A stretch of DNA of 38,646 bases, from the NCBI GenBank assembly GCA_037138355.1, contig JBAXIL010000014.1, positions 1 to 38,646 of the forward strand. Reading direction: 5' to 3'. The translations under genes and the position numbers were made by a program. This DNA is from a bacterium (GTDB taxonomy: Bacteria; Oederibacteriota; PGYV01; Palsa-1178). This document shows, in pieces, positions 4,606 to 16,162 of the stretch (the first letter of the stretch is position 1; each line of letters starts with the position of its first letter). The notes under the pieces were generated by a model. That model did not search any database. It had not been told where the DNA came from and saw only the letters and a program-made list of their open reading frames with translations.

Positions 4606-4647
4606 AAGAAAAAAGGGCGGGATTAAATCTCCCGCCCTTTTTCTTTT
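4606..4647. terminator. Bidirectional intrinsic terminator between convergent glnK and gdhA
   Basis: AAGAAAAAAGGGCGGGA-TTAAATC-TCCCGCCCTTTTTCTT, with A and T tracts on both sides. Confidence 0.9.
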
Positions 4648-4685: not shown

Positions 4686-6026
4686 TTAAACTACACCCTG
4701 ATCTATCATTGAATCGGCTACTTTAACAAAACCTGCTATATTCGCACCCATTACATAGTTAGTAGGGTCGCCGTATTCTGTGGCGGCACTTACGCACTGA
4801 TTATGGATTGCGATCATAATATTATGCAGCCTTGTATCAACTTCTTCGCGTGTCCACGAAAGTCTCATGGAGTTCTGCGACATTTCAAGACCTGATGTTG
4901 CAACTCCGCCAGCATTTGCGGCTTTACCTGGGCCATACATAATCTTTTTAGCCAAGTATTGTTCAATAGCTTCAGGAGTAGAAGGCATATTTGCGCCTTC
5001 ACTTATTAATTTGCAACCATTATCAAGTAATAGCTTTGCATTTTTACCGTCAATCTCATTCTGTGTGGCACTTGGGAATGCACAATCACAAGCAATTGCC
5101 CATGGTTTTGCCCCAGGTCTGTACTCACATTTATATTTATCTGCATATTCTTTAATACGACCGCGTTTTACATTTTTTAAATCAAGTACATATGCAAGCT
5201 TTTCTGCATTTATACCGTCTTTATCATATATAGTTCCTTCTGAATCAGAAAGTGAAACAGCCTTACCGCCGAGATGATTTATTTTCTCAACTGTATACTG
5301 TGCTACATTTCCTGAACCTGAAACTACACAAGTCTTTCCTTTAATGGAATCATTTTTTGTTTTAAGCATTTCCTGTGCAAAATATACTGCTCCATAACCA
5401 GTAGCTTCTGGGCGAATCAATGAGCCACCCCAATTTAACGCCTTACCTGTTAATATCCCTGTAAACTCATTACGAATTCTTTTATACTGCCCAAACATAA
5501 AACCAATCTCTCTTCCGCCTACACCAATATCTCCAGCTGGGACATCTGTGTCAGGTCCAATGTGGCGTTGAAGTTCAAGCATAAAAGACTGAATGAAACG
5601 CATAACTTCATTATCAGATTTACCTTTAGGGTCAAAATCAGATCCACCTTTTCCGCCACCCATAGGGAGTGTAGTAAGGGAATTTTTGAAAACCTGTTCA
5701 AATCCAAGGAATTTGAGAATTGAAGCATTTACTGATGGGTGAAGGCGAAGACCGCCTTTGTAAGGACCGATTGCGCTATTAAACTCAAATCTAAAACCAC
5801 GATTTACTTGAACTATATTCTTATCATCAACCCAAGGAACGCGAAAAATAATCTGTCTTTCTGGTTCAACTATACGCTCTAAAATACTTGCCTTCTCATA
5901 CTTTTTATTTCTGTCAACTACTGGGGCAAGTGACTCAAGCACTTCTGTTACCGCCTGCAAAAACTCAGGTTCATTTGCATTGCGTTTCTTAACTGTTTCA
6001 AGAACTTTATTGATATACTCCGACAT
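4686..6026 (-). CDS. gdhA: NADP-type glutamate dehydrogenase
   Basis: GPYKGGLRLHPSV, LPMGGGKGGSDFDPK, DVPAGDIGVGGREIG, RPEATGYG, VSGSGNVA, KAANAGGVATSGLEMSQN. Confidence 0.97.
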   Translation of the reverse strand: MSEYINKVLETVKKRNANEPEFLQAVTEVLESLAPVVDRNKKYEKASILERIVEPERQIIFRVPWVDDKNIVQVNRGFRFEFNSAIGPYKGGLRLHPSVNASILKFLGFEQVFKNSLTTLPMGGGKGGSDFDPKGKSDNEVMRFIQSFMLELQRHIGPDTDVPAGDIGVGGREIGFMFGQYKRIRNEFTGILTGKALNWGGSLIRPEATGYGAVYFAQEMLKTKNDSIKGKTCVVSGSGNVAQYTVEKINHLGGKAVSLSDSEGTIYDKDGINAEKLAYVLDLKNVKRGRIKEYADKYKCEYRPGAKPWAIACDCAFPSATQNEIDGKNAKLLLDNGCKLISEGANMPSTPEAIEQYLAKKIMYGPGKAANAGGVATSGLEMSQNSMRLSWTREEVDTRLHNIMIAIHNQCVSAATEYGDPTNYVMGANIAGFVKVADSMIDQGVV

Positions 6027-6064
6027 ATTTTTCCCCTCCTGCTTCGTATGCGCTTTTATCTTTC

Positions 6065-6144
6065 AAAACGACAAATCTGCCGCCAACACATCAATGTGTC
6101 TGCTATCGTGTATCTTCTGAACACATCAGCGTGCTCAGGCAGAT
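6065..6144 (-). promoter_or_regulatory. gdhA leader: ANTAR-type dual-hairpin RNA with basal helix and overlapping weak terminator
   Basis: Minus strand: CTGAGCAC-GCTGAT-GTGTTCAG and GCAGACAC-ATTGAT-GTGTTGGC, enclosed by ATCTGCC/GGCAGAT. Competing hairpin GGCGGCA-GATT-TGTCGTT followed by TT. Confidence 0.75.
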
Positions 6145-6202
6145 ATTGTTATAAACCTAAAGCACAGCGCTGTGCATTTAAGTTTGCCGACGAAAATTTT
6201 AT

Positions 6203-6979
6203 TTATTTTCCAATTTCCATAGTAAGTATTATTGCTTCCGCTACTTCTTTCATAGACTTTCTTGAATCCATTGATTTTTTATGTATTGATTTATATGCTA
6301 TGTCTTCTGACATTTTAAACTTGCTCATTAATATTCCTTTGGCCCTATCAATGAGTTTTCTTGTTTCAAGTGCTTCTTTCGCCATAACTGTTTCTTCTAA
6401 CAACTTGACATTTTCTATCCCAATGGCAGCTTGATTGGCCACAGACTGTAATATGCGTATTTCACTTTCACTAAAGACATGCTCTTGAGTGGTATAAATA
6501 TTAATTACCCCCATTACATTGTTTCGTAAAATCATCGGAACTGCCAGCATTGATTTAAGCCCTTCCTTAAGTGCTATTTCCTTAAATGCATAACCATTCT
6601 CTTTTGTAACATTTAAAACAGTTACTGGTTTTTTGTCAACAACTGCCCTTCCAGATATTGATTGCCCTACATTAATATTTGGTTTATTTCTATATTCAGT
6701 ACTTAGGCTTTGCGTTGCAATTGATTTAAGTTCCTGTTGATTTTTATCCAGCAACATTATAGAACAAATTTTAGACCCCATCATTTCGGCAGTAAGCGAA
6801 ACCACTATGTGCAATATTTCTTCTAAATATCTTCCAGAAACAATAGATTTACTTATTTCGGTTAAGGTTTCAATTTCTTTTTCTTTTTCCTGTATAATTA
6901 ATTTGAGTCTTGTTATTTCCGAGATACTTTTTGTAGGAACGATTTTTTTTCGTTTTTTTGCGATTTTCTTCTCAATCAT
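6203..6979 (-). CDS. GAF + ANTAR domain RNA-binding regulator
   Basis: N-terminal coiled coil, GAF-like core (CSIMLLD...GQSISGRAV...SMLAVPM...GVINIY...F...LQSVANQAAIGIEN) and C-terminal ANTAR (ALETRKLIDRAKGILM...SEDIAY...SMDSRKSMKEVAEAII). Start set at ATG 6979 after GGGGAG; the ORF track start is 7039. Confidence 0.92.
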   Translation of the reverse strand: MIEKKIAKKRKKIVPTKSISEITRLKLIIQEKEKEIETLTEISKSIVSGRYLEEILHIVVSLTAEMMGSKICSIMLLDKNQQELKSIATQSLSTEYRNKPNINVGQSISGRAVVDKKPVTVLNVTKENGYAFKEIALKEGLKSMLAVPMILRNNVMGVINIYTTQEHVFSESEIRILQSVANQAAIGIENVKLLEETVMAKEALETRKLIDRAKGILMSKFKMSEDIAYKSIHKKSMDSRKSMKEVAEAIILTMEIGK

Positions 6980-7062
6980 GAACGCTCCCCAAAAACAGAA
7001 TATAAAATGCGTGCTATTTCGGCCGACAGAAAAAGCCAAATCTTTATTTATATATCAAAAAG

Positions 7063-10888: not shown

Positions 10889-13800
10889 TTAGGCCTCCGT
10901 CGTTTCAAGGGACTGCTGTTTTTTCGCAAGGTCCATTATTTGTTTATATTCAATTGGAATTACTTTAACAAAGTTTTTAATACTATAATCAAAATTTTCC
11001 AACAACTCTGAAGCTTTCCCGCTGGAAGTATATTTTATGTGATTTTCAAGCATTGTCTTTACAGTTCTAATATCATCTGCGTCTAATCCTGATAACTCCA
11101 CCATATCTTTATTACATTTGTCAGGAAATACTCTTGCTTCATCATACACATAAGCAATTCCGCCAGACATACCCGCTGCAAAGTTTCTTCCTGTCTGTCC
11201 TAACACCACTACTCTTCCACCTGTCATATATTCGCAACCATGGTCACCTAAACCTTCTACCACAGCATAAAGTCCAGAGTTTCTTATACAAAATCTTTCT
11301 CCAGCCATTCCACGAATATAGGCCTCGCCTGATATAGCTCCGTAAAAAGCCGTATTACCTATAATTACATTTTCTGTTGAATTATACATTGCTTTTTTAA
11401 ATGGATATATTGAAATACGGCCACCAGAAATTCCTTTTCCCACATAATCATTTGCAAGACCTTCAAGCTCAAAATTAATTCCTTTAGCAAGAAATGCACC
11501 AAAACTTTGTCCTGCAGTACCTTTAAACTTACAGTGTATTGTATTTTCAGGTAAATATTGTTCTCCGTATTTTTTGCATACCTCTCCTGATAACATAGCA
11601 CCACATGAACGATCTGTATTCTTAATAACTTTTTCTATTTTAACCACTATTTTATTATCTAATGCTGGTTTACTTTCCAATATCAGTTCCCGATCAAGAA
11701 CTTTATCTATTTCATGATCCTGCTTTGTTACACAGTATGTTGCTGTATCTGCCTTTACCTCTGGTTTATACAGAATCTTTGAGAAATCTATTCTCTTTGC
11801 CTTCCATGGAATTATTTCTTTATCTACCTCAAGCAAATCAACTCTACCGACCAAATCATTAACAGTTTTAATTCCAAGTTCAGCCATTATTTCTCTTAAA
11901 TCCTGTGCAATAAATTTCATAAAGTTTACTACATATTCTGGTTTGCCAGCAAAACGCTTTTGTAAAAGCTCGTCTTGCGTAGCAACACCTAAAGAACAAT
12001 TATTTAAATGACAATGTCTAAGCATTACACAACCTAAAGTAATAAGTACGATAGTTCCAAAACCAAACTCTTCCGCTCCTAAACATGCTGCCACAGCCAA
12101 ATCGCGGCCAGTTCTCATTTGTCCATCTGTTTGTAAACGAACTCTTCCCCGCAAATTATTCATGACAAGAGTTTGATGTGTTTCTGAAATGCCTAATTCC
12201 CACGGCAAACCTGCATGCATAATAGAGGTTTTAGGAGAAGCACCTGTTCCACCATCTCCACCTGATATCAGTATCATATCTGCATGAGCTTTGGCAACAC
12301 CTGCCGCAACTGTGCCTACTCCAGCTTCCGACACAAGTTTTACACTTATTCTGGCTCTTGGATTAGCATTCTTCAAATCAAAGATAAGCTGTTTTAAATC
12401 TTCAATAGAATAAATATCATGATGTGGTGGCGGTGATATCAAAGTAACTCCAGGGGTTGTATATCTCGTTCTGGCAATTATTTCGCTTACTTTATGACCA
12501 GGCAATTGTCCACCTTCTCCTGGTTTTGCACCTTGAGAAATTTTTATTTGTATTTCATCAGCATTAGTTAAATAATTTATATTTACACCAAACCTACCAG
12601 AAGCAACCTGCTTTATAGCACTGCGCGCAAGATCACCATTTGGATAAGGAGTAAATCTTATTGGATCCTCTCCGCCTTCTCCAGTATTTGATTTTCCACC
12701 AAGTCTATTCATGGCTATTGCCATTGCCTCATGAGCAGCGCCACTGATAGAACCAAAACTCATTGCTCCTACCACAAATCTTTTTACAATTGAATCAACA
12801 GACTCAACTTCAGATAACAAAACAGCTTTCTGTTTTTTAAACTTAAGCAAGCTTCTTAATGTCACAGGTTGATTTGCCTGATTATTTATAATTGCAGCAA
12901 ACTCCTTAAATCTTTTTTCGTCATTATTCCTTACGGCGTCCTGTATCGCAGCAATAGATTCAGGATTCCATAGATGTGTTTCCCCGTCTTTTTTCCACTG
13001 ATATAATCCACCAGTAGGCAATATCTTTTCTGCGGCACCTGTTTTACAGAATGATTCCGTATGAGTCATTATTACTTCTTTTGCTATTTCTTCAAAACCC
13101 ACTCCACCTATGCGTGAGACAGCACCAGTAAAACATCTGTCTATCACTTCATCGTGAATACCAAAGGCCTCAAAAATCTGCGCGCCTCTGTAGCTTTGTA
13201 ATGTGGATATACCCATTTTTGCCATAACTTTGCGTATTCCCTTATGGCAAGTTTTCCTGTAATTATAAACAGCCTTTTCATAACCGCAGTCTATTTCACC
13301 TTTATCTGTCATATATCTTATTGCTTCATACACCAAATAAGGATTGATAATATCAACTCCAAAACCGAGCAGAACACAAAAATGATGAACTTCTCTTGGT
13401 TCTCCTGATTCAAGTATTAATCCTACGCTTGTCCTTAAAGACTTTCTAACAAGCTCTTGATGAACAGCTCCTGAAGCCAAAAGTGAAGGTATCGCAGTAT
13501 ATTCATCACTAACGCCTTTATCACTTAAAATTATATATGAATAACCTTCTTTTATTGCCTTCACTGATTCTTCACATACCCTATCTAAAGCACTAACAAA
13601 ATCACCTGTATCTCCAGGCATAAGTAATAAAGAAATAGTTTTAGTTCTAAATCCATTTACTGCTATATGTTTTATTTTCTCAAGTTCTTCATTTGTAACA
13701 ATAGGCTCTCTCACCTGTAGCTTATGTGTATGCTGAGCTGTTTCTTCAAAAAGATTTTTCTGCGGACCTATAAAGCTCCGCAAGCTCATTACTATTTCCT

Positions 13801-15427
13801 CTCTTTCAGAATCGATAGGCGGATTTGTAACCTGAGCAAAGAGCTGCTTGAAATATGTAAAAAGTAATTTTGGTCTTATTGAAAGCACTGCGTGAGGCGT
13901 ATCATTACCCATAGAACCAAGCGGATCCTTAGCTTCTCCTGCCATAGGTTTCAAAATATCTTTAAGGTCTTCTCTTGTGTATCCAAAAACTTTAAGCTGA
14001 TCCATGAGTCCTTCGGGATTGGAAGGTTTCATATCAGGAACCGGAAGATCTTCTATGTATATTAGCTGTTCTTTTCTCCATTGCCTATATGGCGCGCGCC
14101 TTGATAAATCTTCTTTGACTTCCGAATCATTTATTATTCTGTTTTTTGCAGTGTCTATATAAAATATTTTGCCAGGCTCTAATCTTCCCGACTTATTTAT
14201 ATTGGAAGGAGGTATGTCAAGAACTCCAACCTCTGATGACATGACCACATAACCATCATTTGTTATTATATATCTTGCTGGTCTGAGTCCATTTCTATCA
14301 AGTACTGCCCCTATTCTTATCCCATCCGTAAAAGCAAGTGCCGCAGGACCGTCCCAAGGTTCCATGAAGCAAGCATGATACTTATAAAAACTTCTTATAG
14401 AATTAGGTAAAAGATCATTATGTTCCCAAGCTTCTGGGACTAACATCATCATAGCGTGCGGCATACTTCTTCCTGCTTTAGTTAGCATTTCAAAAGCATT
14501 ATCTATGGAAGCCGAATCACTTTGTTTTTCATCGCGAATAGCGGGTTTCATGTGTTTAGTATCAGTACCAAAAAGAGCACTATTGAAAAGTCCTTCTCTC
14601 GCTTTCATCCAGTTTAAGTTTCCTCTTAAAGTATTAATCTCGCCATTGTGAGCCAAATAACGGAATGGCTGAGCTAAATCCCATGTAGGAAAAGTGTTTG
14701 TAGAATAACGGGAATGAACAAGGCAAATTGCGCTTTTAATATCTTCGTCTTTTAAATCTGTAAAGAAATTAGCTATCTCTGCTGGCATCATAAGACCTTT
14801 ATATATGATAACTCTGCTTGATAAATTAGTAACATAAAATTGTGCTTTTTGTTTTAGATTAGAATCTCTTACAACATTTTCAACTTTTTTTCTTATTATA
14901 TAAAGCGCGCGTTCAAAAGCTTCTCTATCATTTATATTCTCTGCTTTCTTTATAAAAAGGTGTTCAAACCTTGGCTCGCTTGCCCTTGCTACAGGACCTA
15001 TTACATTATTATCAACTGGCACTTCTCTCCAACCCAAAAGAGTTTGTCCTTGTTCATCAATCGCTTTTTTTATTTCATTTTTTACTACCTTGCATTCATT
15101 TTCATCTTGTGGTAAAAAAACTAAACCTATACCATATTCACCTTCATCAGGAAGGTTTATGCCAATATTTTTTGATACCTTTATAAAAAAATCATGTGGA
15201 ATTTGTATAAGAATCCCCGCTCCATCACCGGTTTTTGAATCAGCACCAGTTGCCCCACGATGAGTCATGCGCTCAAGTATCTGCATGCCATCAAGAACGA
15301 GCTTATTTGTCTTATCGCCTTTTATGTTTGCGATAAAACCTACACCACAGGAATCTTTTTCAAATGAAGGATCATATAACCCTTTTTTCATTGGCATATA
15401 ACCTTCCATAGAGCTTACAGTTTCCAT
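10889..15427 (-). CDS. gltB: Glutamate synthase large (alpha) subunit
   Basis: EKDSCGVGF (catalytic Cys), HSRYSTNTFP, EPWDGPA, KQLFAQVTNPPID, IKQVASGRFGV, QGAKPGEGGQLPG, [3Fe-4S] motif CVMLRHCHLNNC, C-terminal GXGXG repeats. Confidence 0.98.
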   Translation of the reverse strand: METVSSMEGYMPMKKGLYDPSFEKDSCGVGFIANIKGDKTNKLVLDGMQILERMTHRGATGADSKTGDGAGILIQIPHDFFIKVSKNIGINLPDEGEYGIGLVFLPQDENECKVVKNEIKKAIDEQGQTLLGWREVPVDNNVIGPVARASEPRFEHLFIKKAENINDREAFERALYIIRKKVENVVRDSNLKQKAQFYVTNLSSRVIIYKGLMMPAEIANFFTDLKDEDIKSAICLVHSRYSTNTFPTWDLAQPFRYLAHNGEINTLRGNLNWMKAREGLFNSALFGTDTKHMKPAIRDEKQSDSASIDNAFEMLTKAGRSMPHAMMMLVPEAWEHNDLLPNSIRSFYKYHACFMEPWDGPAALAFTDGIRIGAVLDRNGLRPARYIITNDGYVVMSSEVGVLDIPPSNINKSGRLEPGKIFYIDTAKNRIINDSEVKEDLSRRAPYRQWRKEQLIYIEDLPVPDMKPSNPEGLMDQLKVFGYTREDLKDILKPMAGEAKDPLGSMGNDTPHAVLSIRPKLLFTYFKQLFAQVTNPPIDSEREEIVMSLRSFIGPQKNLFEETAQHTHKLQVREPIVTNEELEKIKHIAVNGFRTKTISLLLMPGDTGDFVSALDRVCEESVKAIKEGYSYIILSDKGVSDEYTAIPSLLASGAVHQELVRKSLRTSVGLILESGEPREVHHFCVLLGFGVDIINPYLVYEAIRYMTDKGEIDCGYEKAVYNYRKTCHKGIRKVMAKMGISTLQSYRGAQIFEAFGIHDEVIDRCFTGAVSRIGGVGFEEIAKEVIMTHTESFCKTGAAEKILPTGGLYQWKKDGETHLWNPESIAAIQDAVRNNDEKRFKEFAAIINNQANQPVTLRSLLKFKKQKAVLLSEVESVDSIVKRFVVGAMSFGSISGAAHEAMAIAMNRLGGKSNTGEGGEDPIRFTPYPNGDLARSAIKQVASGRFGVNINYLTNADEIQIKISQGAKPGEGGQLPGHKVSEIIARTRYTTPGVTLISPPPHHDIYSIEDLKQLIFDLKNANPRARISVKLVSEAGVGTVAAGVAKAHADMILISGGDGGTGASPKTSIMHAGLPWELGISETHQTLVMNNLRGRVRLQTDGQMRTGRDLAVAACLGAEEFGFGTIVLITLGCVMLRHCHLNNCSLGVATQDELLQKRFAGKPEYVVNFMKFIAQDLREIMAELGIKTVNDLVGRVDLLEVDKEIIPWKAKRIDFSKILYKPEVKADTATYCVTKQDHEIDKVLDRELILESKPALDNKIVVKIEKVIKNTDRSCGAMLSGEVCKKYGEQYLPENTIHCKFKGTAGQSFGAFLAKGINFELEGLANDYVGKGISGGRISIYPFKKAMYNSTENVIIGNTAFYGAISGEAYIRGMAGERFCIRNSGLYAVVEGLGDHGCEYMTGGRVVVLGQTGRNFAAGMSGGIAYVYDEARVFPDKCNKDMVELSGLDADDIRTVKTMLENHIKYTSSGKASELLENFDYSIKNFVKVIPIEYKQIMDLAKKQQSLETTEA

Positions 15428-15518
15428 ACAAAACTCCTTTTATATTATTAATTTTCAAATTAAGTTTTAAGCTTTATAAATTTTTAGCCAAATAACAATC
15501 TATCTATAGGCATACTTA

Positions 15519-15592
15519 TAGCAACTATACAACCTTGAGATTTGTCGCATCGTAGCGACATATTAGGCAGGCATCGACGCCAACTGTTGCTA
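15519..15592 (-). promoter_or_regulatory. gltB leader: ANTAR-type dual-hairpin RNA with basal helix
   Basis: Minus strand: GGC-GTCGAT-GCC, 9-nt linker, TGTCGC-TACGAT-GCGACA, enclosed by TAGCAAC/GTTGCTA, immediately after the promoter. Confidence 0.75.
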
Positions 15593-15596
15593 AATA

Positions 15597-15625
15597 ACTA
15601 TACAAAATATGTGATTAAAAGTCAA
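15597..15625 (-). promoter_or_regulatory. Sigma70-type promoter of the gltB operon
   Basis: TTGACT-17 nt-TATAGT on the minus strand. Confidence 0.75.
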
Positions 15626-15670
15626 ACAGAAAACTAAAAGTACGATTATAAGATATGCTATATTTAATTG

Positions 15671-16162
15671 CTATTTTTGTTCTGTTGGCTTGTTTATTTT
15701 ACCTGAAAGTTTCGCCTTTAATATTGTATGCATTTCACCTTCATTTTTTACAATATTATCCAGAACACCGTTGATAAAACTACCTGATTTTTCGTCCCCA
15801 AACCTTTTAGCAAGTTCGATGGCTTCGTTTATCGTAACTTTATATGGTATGTCTTCACGGAAAACCAACTCCGCTACTCCAATGCGCAGTATATTTCTAT
15901 CTATAGATAAAATCCTGTCGTATTTCCAGTTTTTCAGATATTTTGGAATTATCTCATCTATTTCCTTCATATGTTCCATAACATCTTTTATTAAGTCTTT
16001 GGAAAACTCTTTCGATTTATCTAAAAACTTTTCCTCTTGTCCTAAATTCTGTGTTGAGTAAGTATCAATGAACTCGTTTATCTCATCCATTGGCTTTTCT
16101 GCAATCTCAATCTGATACAAACTCTGAAGAGCAATAATTCTTCCAGCACGCCTTATTCCCAT
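15671..16162 (-). CDS. nusB: Transcription antitermination factor NusB
   Basis: [34 protein letters not shown]...FINGVLD. Follows ribH. Confidence 0.95.

Follow-up and report, generated by a model that had tools for sequence, protein, structure and literature searches.

The gdhA locus and the architecture of its leader

The window analysed in this study is the whole 38,646-nt stretch of contig JBAXIL010000014.1 (assembly GCA_037138355.1), from a bacterium of the Oederibacteriota, and it carries on its minus strand the glutamate dehydrogenase gene gdhA (4686-6026; Pfam ELFV_dehydrog, 2.7e-92, and ELFV_dehydrog_N, 3.9e-49). The leader of this gene occupies the same strand between gdhA and a 278-codon open reading frame (ORF; 6203-7039, minus strand), whose product matches the Pfam families GAF_2 (8.7e-23; 81.5 bits, cut-off 28.6) and ANTAR (2e-20; 72.8 bits, cut-off 27.3), both of which pass; it is the sole ANTAR match in the whole genome and is called here the GAF-ANTAR regulator. 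An earlier note on this DNA had read the leader as a full ANTAR attenuator, in which a protein-held hairpin competes with a terminator. An ANTAR-type dual-hexaloop element, consisting of two tandem stem-loops with a 13-nt linker and adjoining a GAF-ANTAR gene, was borne out by our analysis, and it is the mode of action of this element that is weighed in the present work.

Every pairing listed in the earlier note was found on the minus strand at the positions given there, both by sequence reading and in a scripted pair list. Hairpin 1 (P1, 6138-6117) has a stem of 8 pairs, one of them G-U, with a hexaloop at 6130-6125, a C-G closing pair, G at loop positions 1 and 4, and a predicted energy of -11.6 kcal/mol. 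It is followed by the linker of 13 nt (6116-6104) and by hairpin 2 (P2, 6103-6082; -7.5 kcal/mol), which has 7 pairs and one A.G mismatch (6101/6084), so that a core (6100-6085) is told apart from two outer pairs beyond the mismatch. The hexaloop of P2 (6095-6090), closed by C-G, carries A at position 1 and G at position 4; in the energy model, one further pair forms inside this loop, which is a common ambiguity. The outer pairing proposed between 6189-6183 and 6075-6069 also exists (7 pairs, one G-U).

The basal helix that had been placed at 6144-6138 with 6081-6075 does comprise seven Watson-Crick pairs; base 6138 had been counted twice in it, as part of the helix and of hairpin 1, and the true helix is longer, running from 6149-6139 with 6080-6071 over 10 pairs with one bulge, at 6145. 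From the fold and from the consensus with the closest orthologous leader, its strands on the minus strand are set at 6139-6149 (5') and 6071-6081 (3'). Since the helix is longer than first described, it also occupies part of the 3' strand of the candidate terminator discussed below. In a fold of 6067-6147, the linker pairs alternatively with 6145-6141 and 6073-6068, lengthening P1 and P2.

The minimum-energy fold of the leader consists of the basal helix and hairpins 1 and 2. The 186-nt leader folds at -51.5 kcal/mol (z -2.69, with 1 of 200 shuffles as good), and the portion 6062-6185 stands out further (z -3.38), none of 200 shuffles being as good. At equilibrium, the closing pairs form with probabilities of 0.75 (P1) and 0.74 (P2). 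Downstream, the Shine-Dalgarno sequence (6039-6033) and the start codon of gdhA (6026-6024), which together span 6024-6039 on the minus strand, follow P2 at a distance of 42 nt, and the Shine-Dalgarno sequence is predicted to be unpaired with a probability of 0.89.

Right after the stop codon of the regulator gene lies a further minus-strand hairpin, P0 (6153-6185; apex stem 6175-6162), which is present in the minimum-energy folds and whose apex is the only minus-strand terminator-like hit of the consensus scan in the leader. Probably P0 is a weak terminator or an insulator of the regulator gene; the apex also allows a third hexaloop hairpin to be drawn, whose loop has A in position 1 and G in position 4. 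The 12-base palindromic apex is identical in the closest orthologous leader and the lower stem covaries. A reading of P0 as a DNA operator palindrome was considered and rejected in favor of an RNA hairpin, the lower stem having changed on both sides in that orthologue. Between 6027 and 6202, the minus strand has no sigma-70-like site according to the consensus scan, and gdhA promoter candidates picked by eye were dropped together with a -24/-12-like site, the spacing of which is wrong.

A second dual-hexaloop element is located on the minus strand at 15519-15592, in the leader of gltB (glutamate synthase large subunit; 10889-15427, minus strand; Pfam GATase_2, Glu_syn_central, Glu_synthase and GXGXG), the first gene of its operon. 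Its hairpins (15581-15570, with a 3-bp stem, and 15560-15543, with a 6-bp stem) are enclosed by a 7-bp helix (15592-15586 with 15525-15519), and it starts just downstream of a promoter-like site (15625-15597, 10 of 12 matches). The gltB leader folds no better than shuffles, and no terminator-like site was found within 15300-15800, the region of this leader. In its layout, the gltB element is of the same design as the element of the gdhA leader.

Conservation of the hairpins and recognition by ANTAR proteins

The recognition element described for ANTAR proteins consists of two tandem stem-loops with hexanucleotide loops, in which the closing pairs, the A of position 1 and the G of position 4 are important for binding (according to the text of PMC3369931). 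We therefore counted hairpins with a C-G closed hexaloop, G at loop position 4 and at least 4 bp, without any preselection, in the 250 nt downstream of 51 orthologues of the regulator, two exact duplicates of the window locus having been dropped. The sense strand held 45 such hairpins, with at least two in 13 loci, against 14 hairpins and a single locus of that kind on the antisense strand; shuffles of the same regions gave a mean of 9.8 hairpins (maximum 19) and 0.98 loci with at least two (maximum 4). Because of this sense-strand enrichment downstream of orthologues, the dual hairpins of the gdhA leader are very likely a real ANTAR target, an assignment that we hold with high confidence.

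Motif searches of broader scope were less telling. Rfam gave no match at gathering score in the whole window, and with E relaxed to 10 the matches in 5900-6350 stayed at chance level. A looser two-hairpin scan returned 1123 genome hits, and single hairpins with G-A-U at loop positions 4-6 were not enriched (198, vs 249-290 in shuffles). Tandem hairpins sharing the last three loop letters occur at three places in the genome, namely the gdhA leader, the gltB leader and a weak pair on contig C9. An alignment of 16 dual hairpins made with MAFFT was set aside, as it placed gaps in the 3' strand of P1 and misplaced the leader L025.

Orthologues of the regulator are clear among the 61 related genomes searched, and gdhA is the next gene after the regulator in 9 of 29 other loci from relatives and in the metagenome locus L032. 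Genomes of the same genus lack a regulator orthologue (best E 1e-15 to 1e-17). The closest orthologue (L002) has a regulator 76% identical to that of the window, and its P1 has A at loop position 1. The consensus fold of the two leaders has 36 pairs: both bases differ in six of them (P0 four, basal helix one, P2 one) and a single base in seven, and none is broken. The basal helix itself shows one compensatory change and two one-sided changes, none of its pairs being broken, and this covariation supports the view of the earlier note that the helix is real. Furthermore, the L002 leader is predicted to adopt this closed junction as well (z -3.52 when P0 is counted in), with closing-pair probabilities of 0.99 and 0.86.

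Closing-pair probabilities were computed at equilibrium for each flagged hairpin of 20 leaders. In the other leaders of the same order they were mostly 0.5-1.0, the exceptions being one hairpin of L025 (0.31) and one of L011 (0.11); these leaders thus expose their hairpins unaided. The loop signature, with G at position 4, mostly A at position 1 and a C-G closure, is kept in orthologous leaders whose stems have diverged, and in other gdhA leaders, too, the hairpins are enclosed by helices, the sequences of which are unrelated. A test for duplexes between the 5' and 3' flanks of 14 leaders gave a combined Fisher p of 1e-4, a value to be read with the facts that kin are not independent, that the signal of L017 is an extension of hairpin 2 itself, and that only 4 of the 14 leaders were individually below 0.05, with 0.097 for the leader of the window.

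A census of terminators, made by consensus rules with loops of up to 22 nt in 23 leaders grouped by kinship, revealed no consensus terminator overlapping the last hexaloop hairpin in any of the 13 same-order leaders (L001-L005, L008, L010-L013, L016, L017 and L025), which comprise the window leader and 12 others. Outside the order, an overlapping terminator was present in three of four leaders of the same phylum (L021, L023 and L026, not L030) and in three of six metagenome loci (L036, L037 and L038, not L032 or L035, with L033 ambiguous). These canonical terminators have 13-15 pairs, energies of -15 to -22 kcal/mol and 5-8 U in the 8-nt tail window, and in all six leaders the overlapped hairpin has a closing-pair probability of 0.00-0.01, which indicates that, in the manner of an antiterminator, the hairpin forms only with the help of the protein. 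The genes downstream of these six leaders appear by eye, from their opening codons, to be glnA, glutamate-synthase-like, nitrite-reductase-like and probable gdh genes.

Some orthologous loci have features of their own. In L011, L012 and L013 the regulator and gdhA are 500-650 nt apart, with several hairpins and short tandem repeats in the spacer and, downstream of these, a strong promoter-like site; these leaders have three hexaloop hairpins, two of them directly abutting. In several high-GC relatives (L015, L019, L022 and L024), the regulator orthologue is followed by a tmRNA-like sequence, recognized by eye from its tRNA-like 3' end.

The window stretch also occurs in freshwater and lake metagenome runs, and all four runs compared consist of assembled contigs. 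A DNA contig from another study spans the whole stretch compared, with 173 differences and 8 gaps in 1501 bases (an 88.5%-identical relative). Between 6027 and 6158, the differences listed include a deletion of 2 nt (6032) and seven substitutions (6046, 6060, 6103, 6108, 6115, 6157 and 6158); all of those listed leave hairpin 1, the P2 core, both strands of the basal helix and the candidate terminator untouched. Through the substitution at 6103, P2 loses its outermost pair, the two changes in P0 keep its pairing, and the linker substitutions at 6108 and 6115 would leave the alternative linker pairs as wobbles.

The candidate terminator and the mode of action

The hairpin that the earlier note had proposed as a terminator (6084-6067, with a short U run; 6065-6084 on the minus strand) is marginal. 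It has 7 pairs, three of them G-C and three G-U, a 4-nt loop and an energy of -6.4 kcal/mol, in line with the caveat already attached to it, of a GU-rich stem with a short U-tract: only four U are found, at 6068-6065, and two of these are within the stem. The consensus scan listed no terminator at 6084-6062, where the U-tract falls short of the rule of at least 5 U in 8. The hairpin had also been called mutually exclusive with hairpin 2, which applies to the two outer pairs of P2, through 3 shared nucleotides (6084-6082), and fails for the core (6100-6085); indeed, the P2 core and the candidate terminator coexist in the minimum-energy and centroid folds of 6103-6067. The fold with the basal helix and both hairpins is predicted at -24.6 kcal/mol, vs -18.0 kcal/mol for hairpin 1 with the terminator. 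In the closest orthologue, six of the terminator pairs are invariant, a central one is broken and none covaries, and the tail is A-rich, with no U tail. Given the weak hairpin, the short U run, the 3-nt overlap and the lack of conservation, the full attenuator with competition between hairpin 2 and a terminator was not upheld, and the hairpin at 6084-6065 probably does not function as a terminator.

Folding of the nascent RNA up to the terminator stem, which had been suggested as a check, gave an answer that depends on the transcript start. With a 5' end at 6156 or 6185 the closed junction forms, with 6147 both hairpins are extended through the linker, and only 6141 brings up the terminator hairpin, in the centroid. 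In RNA libraries of one sample, two contigs (5600-6147 in X6 and 5724-6182 in X15) continue without a break across 6062-6084 into gdhA; they show the leader and gdhA joined in those libraries, and transcript ends are beyond their reach. The positions at which these contigs stop (6147, and 6182 next to adapter sequence) may be 5' ends of gdhA transcripts and are taken as hints only, and the stretches without contig cover (6148-6319 in X6 and upstream of 6182 in X15) carry no evidential weight.

Starting from the observed anatomy, the conservation and covariation, the linkage to the regulator, the missing consensus terminator and the second copy before gltB, we infer that a protein binds the hairpins and that its presence acts after initiation. 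Specifically, we favor, with a probability of roughly 0.55, the view that an ANTAR binding platform, pre-folded and terminator-less, sits in the gdhA leader near the 5' end of the mRNA, and that its occupancy alters gdhA output after initiation. Judging from the sequence, the GAF-ANTAR protein of the gene immediately upstream would bind the two tandem hexaloop hairpins P1 and P2, and, according to the models, a basal helix of about 10 bp would clamp both of them, so that they are predicted to fold and stay displayed unaided. Occupancy of the platform would be set by the ligand state of the GAF domain, and it would change gdhA output by a route other than competition between hairpin and terminator. 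Most plausibly, though we hold this loosely, the route would be an effect on the stability of the mRNA or on how ribosomes load at the A/U-rich spacer that precedes the Shine-Dalgarno sequence. An effect of occupancy is favored because the hairpins are pre-folded, the Shine-Dalgarno sequence is free, and no consistent sequestration of it was found in 12 leaders, where its probability of being unpaired ranges over 0.05-0.89 with no pattern.

Several points weigh against this view. The last result also means that the proposed alternative routes are without a positive sequence signature, and the covariation comes mainly from two sequences. Hairpin 2 matches the published loop signature fully, but hairpin 1 has G instead of A at position 1, and a generic two-hairpin descriptor was not enriched genome-wide (8 hits vs 5-13 in shuffles), so that this motif is uninformative at genome scale and it is context and conservation that carry the case for an ANTAR target. 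Among distant relatives of the regulator, canonical terminators are in use, one of them before a probable gdh (L037), which marks antitermination as the default mechanism of the regulator family. A weak hairpin with four U stands exactly at the position where a terminator would be expected, which is suggestive, not compelling: with the U criterion relaxed to four, there are 1.33 such sites per kb per strand in the six largest contigs, vs 0.76 in shuffles, and the chance of one within 60 nt of hairpin 2 is about 0.05-0.08. The site is unchanged in the 88.5%-identical relative, but so is all of 6100-6061. Moreover, a transcript starting at 6141 would lack the basal helix, the terminator hairpin then appearing only in the centroid, and all folding was at equilibrium, without kinetics and with an assumed transcription start. 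Finally, the contigs of the RNA libraries may derive from DNA carry-over.

Part of these observations speaks for a classic ANTAR attenuator, in which the hairpin 6084-6067 and its U run would terminate transcription and active protein on P1 and P2 would permit read-through. The hairpin and four U immediately 3' of P2, the low chance of such a site at that distance, its persistence in the close relative, the strong terminators of the same logic in the six canonical leaders and the centroid fold from 6141 are all as this account would have them. Its terminator, in turn, is far weaker than those of the canonical leaders, escapes the consensus scan and overlaps P2 by 3 nt only, coexisting with the P2 core; the basal helix competing with it has the greater stability and precedes it in transcription. 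In L002 the hairpin lacks a U tail and has one broken pair, and no equivalent exists in any of the 13 same-order leaders. P1 and P2 form with a probability of about 0.75 without protein, which would make read-through the default state, the opposite of what an antitermination switch needs, and contigs of the RNA libraries bridge the site. We thus consider that the gdhA leader is probably not a classic on/off switch working by termination; since the true 5' end and the kinetics, which equilibrium folding ignores, do matter, this account keeps a minor but real share of our belief. An attenuator dependent on Rho was considered and set aside, the spacer after P2 being A/U-rich and not C-rich.

A reversed logic is still less probable. 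Here the closed junction would be the ON state, and an ANTAR dimer would pry the basal helix open and free either the weak terminator or the pyrimidine-rich 5' strand, the latter to pair near the Shine-Dalgarno sequence, so that the active regulator would lower gdhA and act differently on gltB. The default fold, which leaves the Shine-Dalgarno sequence free and the terminator unformed, agrees with this idea, and when L002 is folded with its ribosome-binding region, the minimum-energy fold pairs the 5' basal strand with that region; that fold, though, is not better than shuffles (z -0.41), and in the window the 5' strand pairs weakly with the Shine-Dalgarno region. In other bacteria gdhA is repressed under nitrogen limitation (Geobacter, in the part of PMC2995071 consulted), so that opposite control of gdhA and gltB by one sensor would be physiologically reasonable. 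On the other side, the same protein family turns a probable gdh on in relatives with canonical leaders, and no precedent was found in the literature consulted.

Equally improbable is a relic or purely structural leader, that is, an ancestral attenuator with a decayed terminator and no regulator-dependent control of gdhA, its hairpins being now just a stable structure at the 5' end or without function, a reading which the lack of both a consensus terminator and an alternative-pairing signature, the constitutive folding of the hairpins, the small genome (1.66 Mb) and the same-genus genomes lacking the regulator would suit, and which is opposed by a regulator gene that is intact and kept beside gdhA in several genera, by the maintenance of the loop signature although stems diverged across orthologous leaders, and by the retention of the same design at gltB.

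The occupancy platform could also be part of a wider change, and we put forward, as a tentative idea held with clearly less confidence than the platform itself, an order-wide rewiring in which competition with a terminator gave way to control by occupancy of a pre-folded three-way junction at the 5' ends of the gdhA and gltB mRNAs; through it, a single GAF-ANTAR nitrogen sensor would set mRNA stability or ribosome loading with no intrinsic terminator involved, maybe in opposite directions for the two genes.

Genomic setting and known ANTAR systems

The genome of the window (1.66 Mb in 91 contigs, 34.9% G+C, 94%-complete) places the leader in a nitrogen-assimilation neighborhood. The regulator is preceded on the minus strand by gltB, a gltD-like gene and two NfnAB-like genes; the gltB operon ends shortly before the regulator gene, which has its own promoter-like site at 7091-7063 (11 of 12 matches in the consensus scan). 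The regulator ORF was drawn from a TTG at 7039; an ATG at 6979 is the likelier start because orthologues align only from about residue 63. The plus strand carries an ammonium transporter and P-II. Directly before the transporter gene, a 232-residue ORF (2071-2769) with a hydrophobic N-terminus and no Pfam match may encode an outer-membrane channel, and about 55 nt upstream of the operon formed by this 232-codon ORF, the ammonium transporter and P-II there is, by eye, a -24/-12 (sigma-54-type) promoter-like element (2004-2019), in which the GG-N10-GC spacing is correct. Between P-II and the end of gdhA stands a strong bidirectional terminator (4610-4642; 13 pairs, with U/A tracts on both sides), from which it follows that the organism uses canonical terminators.

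In the eut leaders of Enterococcus faecalis, as set out in the text of Ramesh et al. (2012; PMC3369931), the second hairpin shares a strand with a strong intrinsic terminator and forms only when the EutV/EutW protein holds it. The gdhA leader resembles these leaders in its tandem short hexaloop stem-loops and in having the regulator encoded nearby, the eut RNA being bound by an ANTAR dimer (PMC3369931). It differs from them in that its hairpins are clamped by a basal helix and predicted to form alone, and in the lack of a convincing terminator; moreover, the sensor is here a GAF domain and not a receiver domain, and the P1 loop starts with G.

Nitrogen genes as such are familiar targets. According to the same source, predicted ANTAR regulons such as that of Desulfotomaculum acetoxidans have motifs before P-II, ammonium transporters, and glutamate and glutamine synthases (PMC3369931). 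The present case shares with these regulons its nitrogen-assimilation targets, and several targets can share one regulator; unlike the elements described here, the hits of those regulons had been selected for a terminator overlapping P2 (PMC3369931). NasR/nasF and AmiR/ami likewise combine an ANTAR protein with a non-receiver sensor, a nitrogen-related gene and a hexaloop leader hairpin; as far as the consulted parts of PMC3369931 and PMC7496416 go, their leaders carry intrinsic terminators and their sensors are NIT or pseudo-receiver domains. Related, too, are the six canonical GAF-ANTAR leaders, with regulators of 45-65% identity, the same hexaloop signature and nitrogen targets; their terminators fully overlap the hairpin and suppress it at equilibrium, which is not so in the window leader or in the 12 other leaders of its order.

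Targets with few predicted terminators have been described in actinobacteria, where many ANTAR-target RNAs are intergenic and ANTAR acts on translation, as reported in the main text of PMC8164766. In those cases the RNA overlaps the ribosome-binding site, whereas in the gdhA leader P2 ends 42 nt upstream of the Shine-Dalgarno sequence (6082 vs 6039), and the host is a low-GC uncultivated bacterium and not an actinobacterium. The gdhA leader is thus not of the type that occludes the ribosome-binding site, its Shine-Dalgarno sequence being clear of P2 and predicted to be largely unpaired.

GAF-ANTAR proteins were described as uncharacterised in 2012 (in the text of PMC3369931), and the main text of that paper contains no occurrence of 'glutamate dehydrogenase' or 'gdh'. 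Our literature search returned no characterised GAF-ANTAR protein and no study of ANTAR and gdhA; the supplementary tables of PMC3369931 and PMC8164766, which may list gdh targets, lay outside it. In short, nitrogen genes have been recognized as ANTAR targets since 2012, and the target described here differs by its lineage-wide, terminator-less, clamped form.

Should the classic reading be true, the gdhA leader would merely be one more nitrogen-gene attenuator. To our knowledge, ANTAR proteins are widespread and nearly all mechanistic work on them concerns switches between a hairpin and a terminator. The lineage of the window retains the regulator and hexaloop targets on both routes of ammonium assimilation, glutamate dehydrogenase and glutamate synthase (GOGAT), without a terminator, and its canonical relatives, with leaders of the L036-L038 type, are built-in positive controls. 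Since regulator and targets have been kept in this way, the lineage offers a natural test case for ANTAR action that lacks termination.

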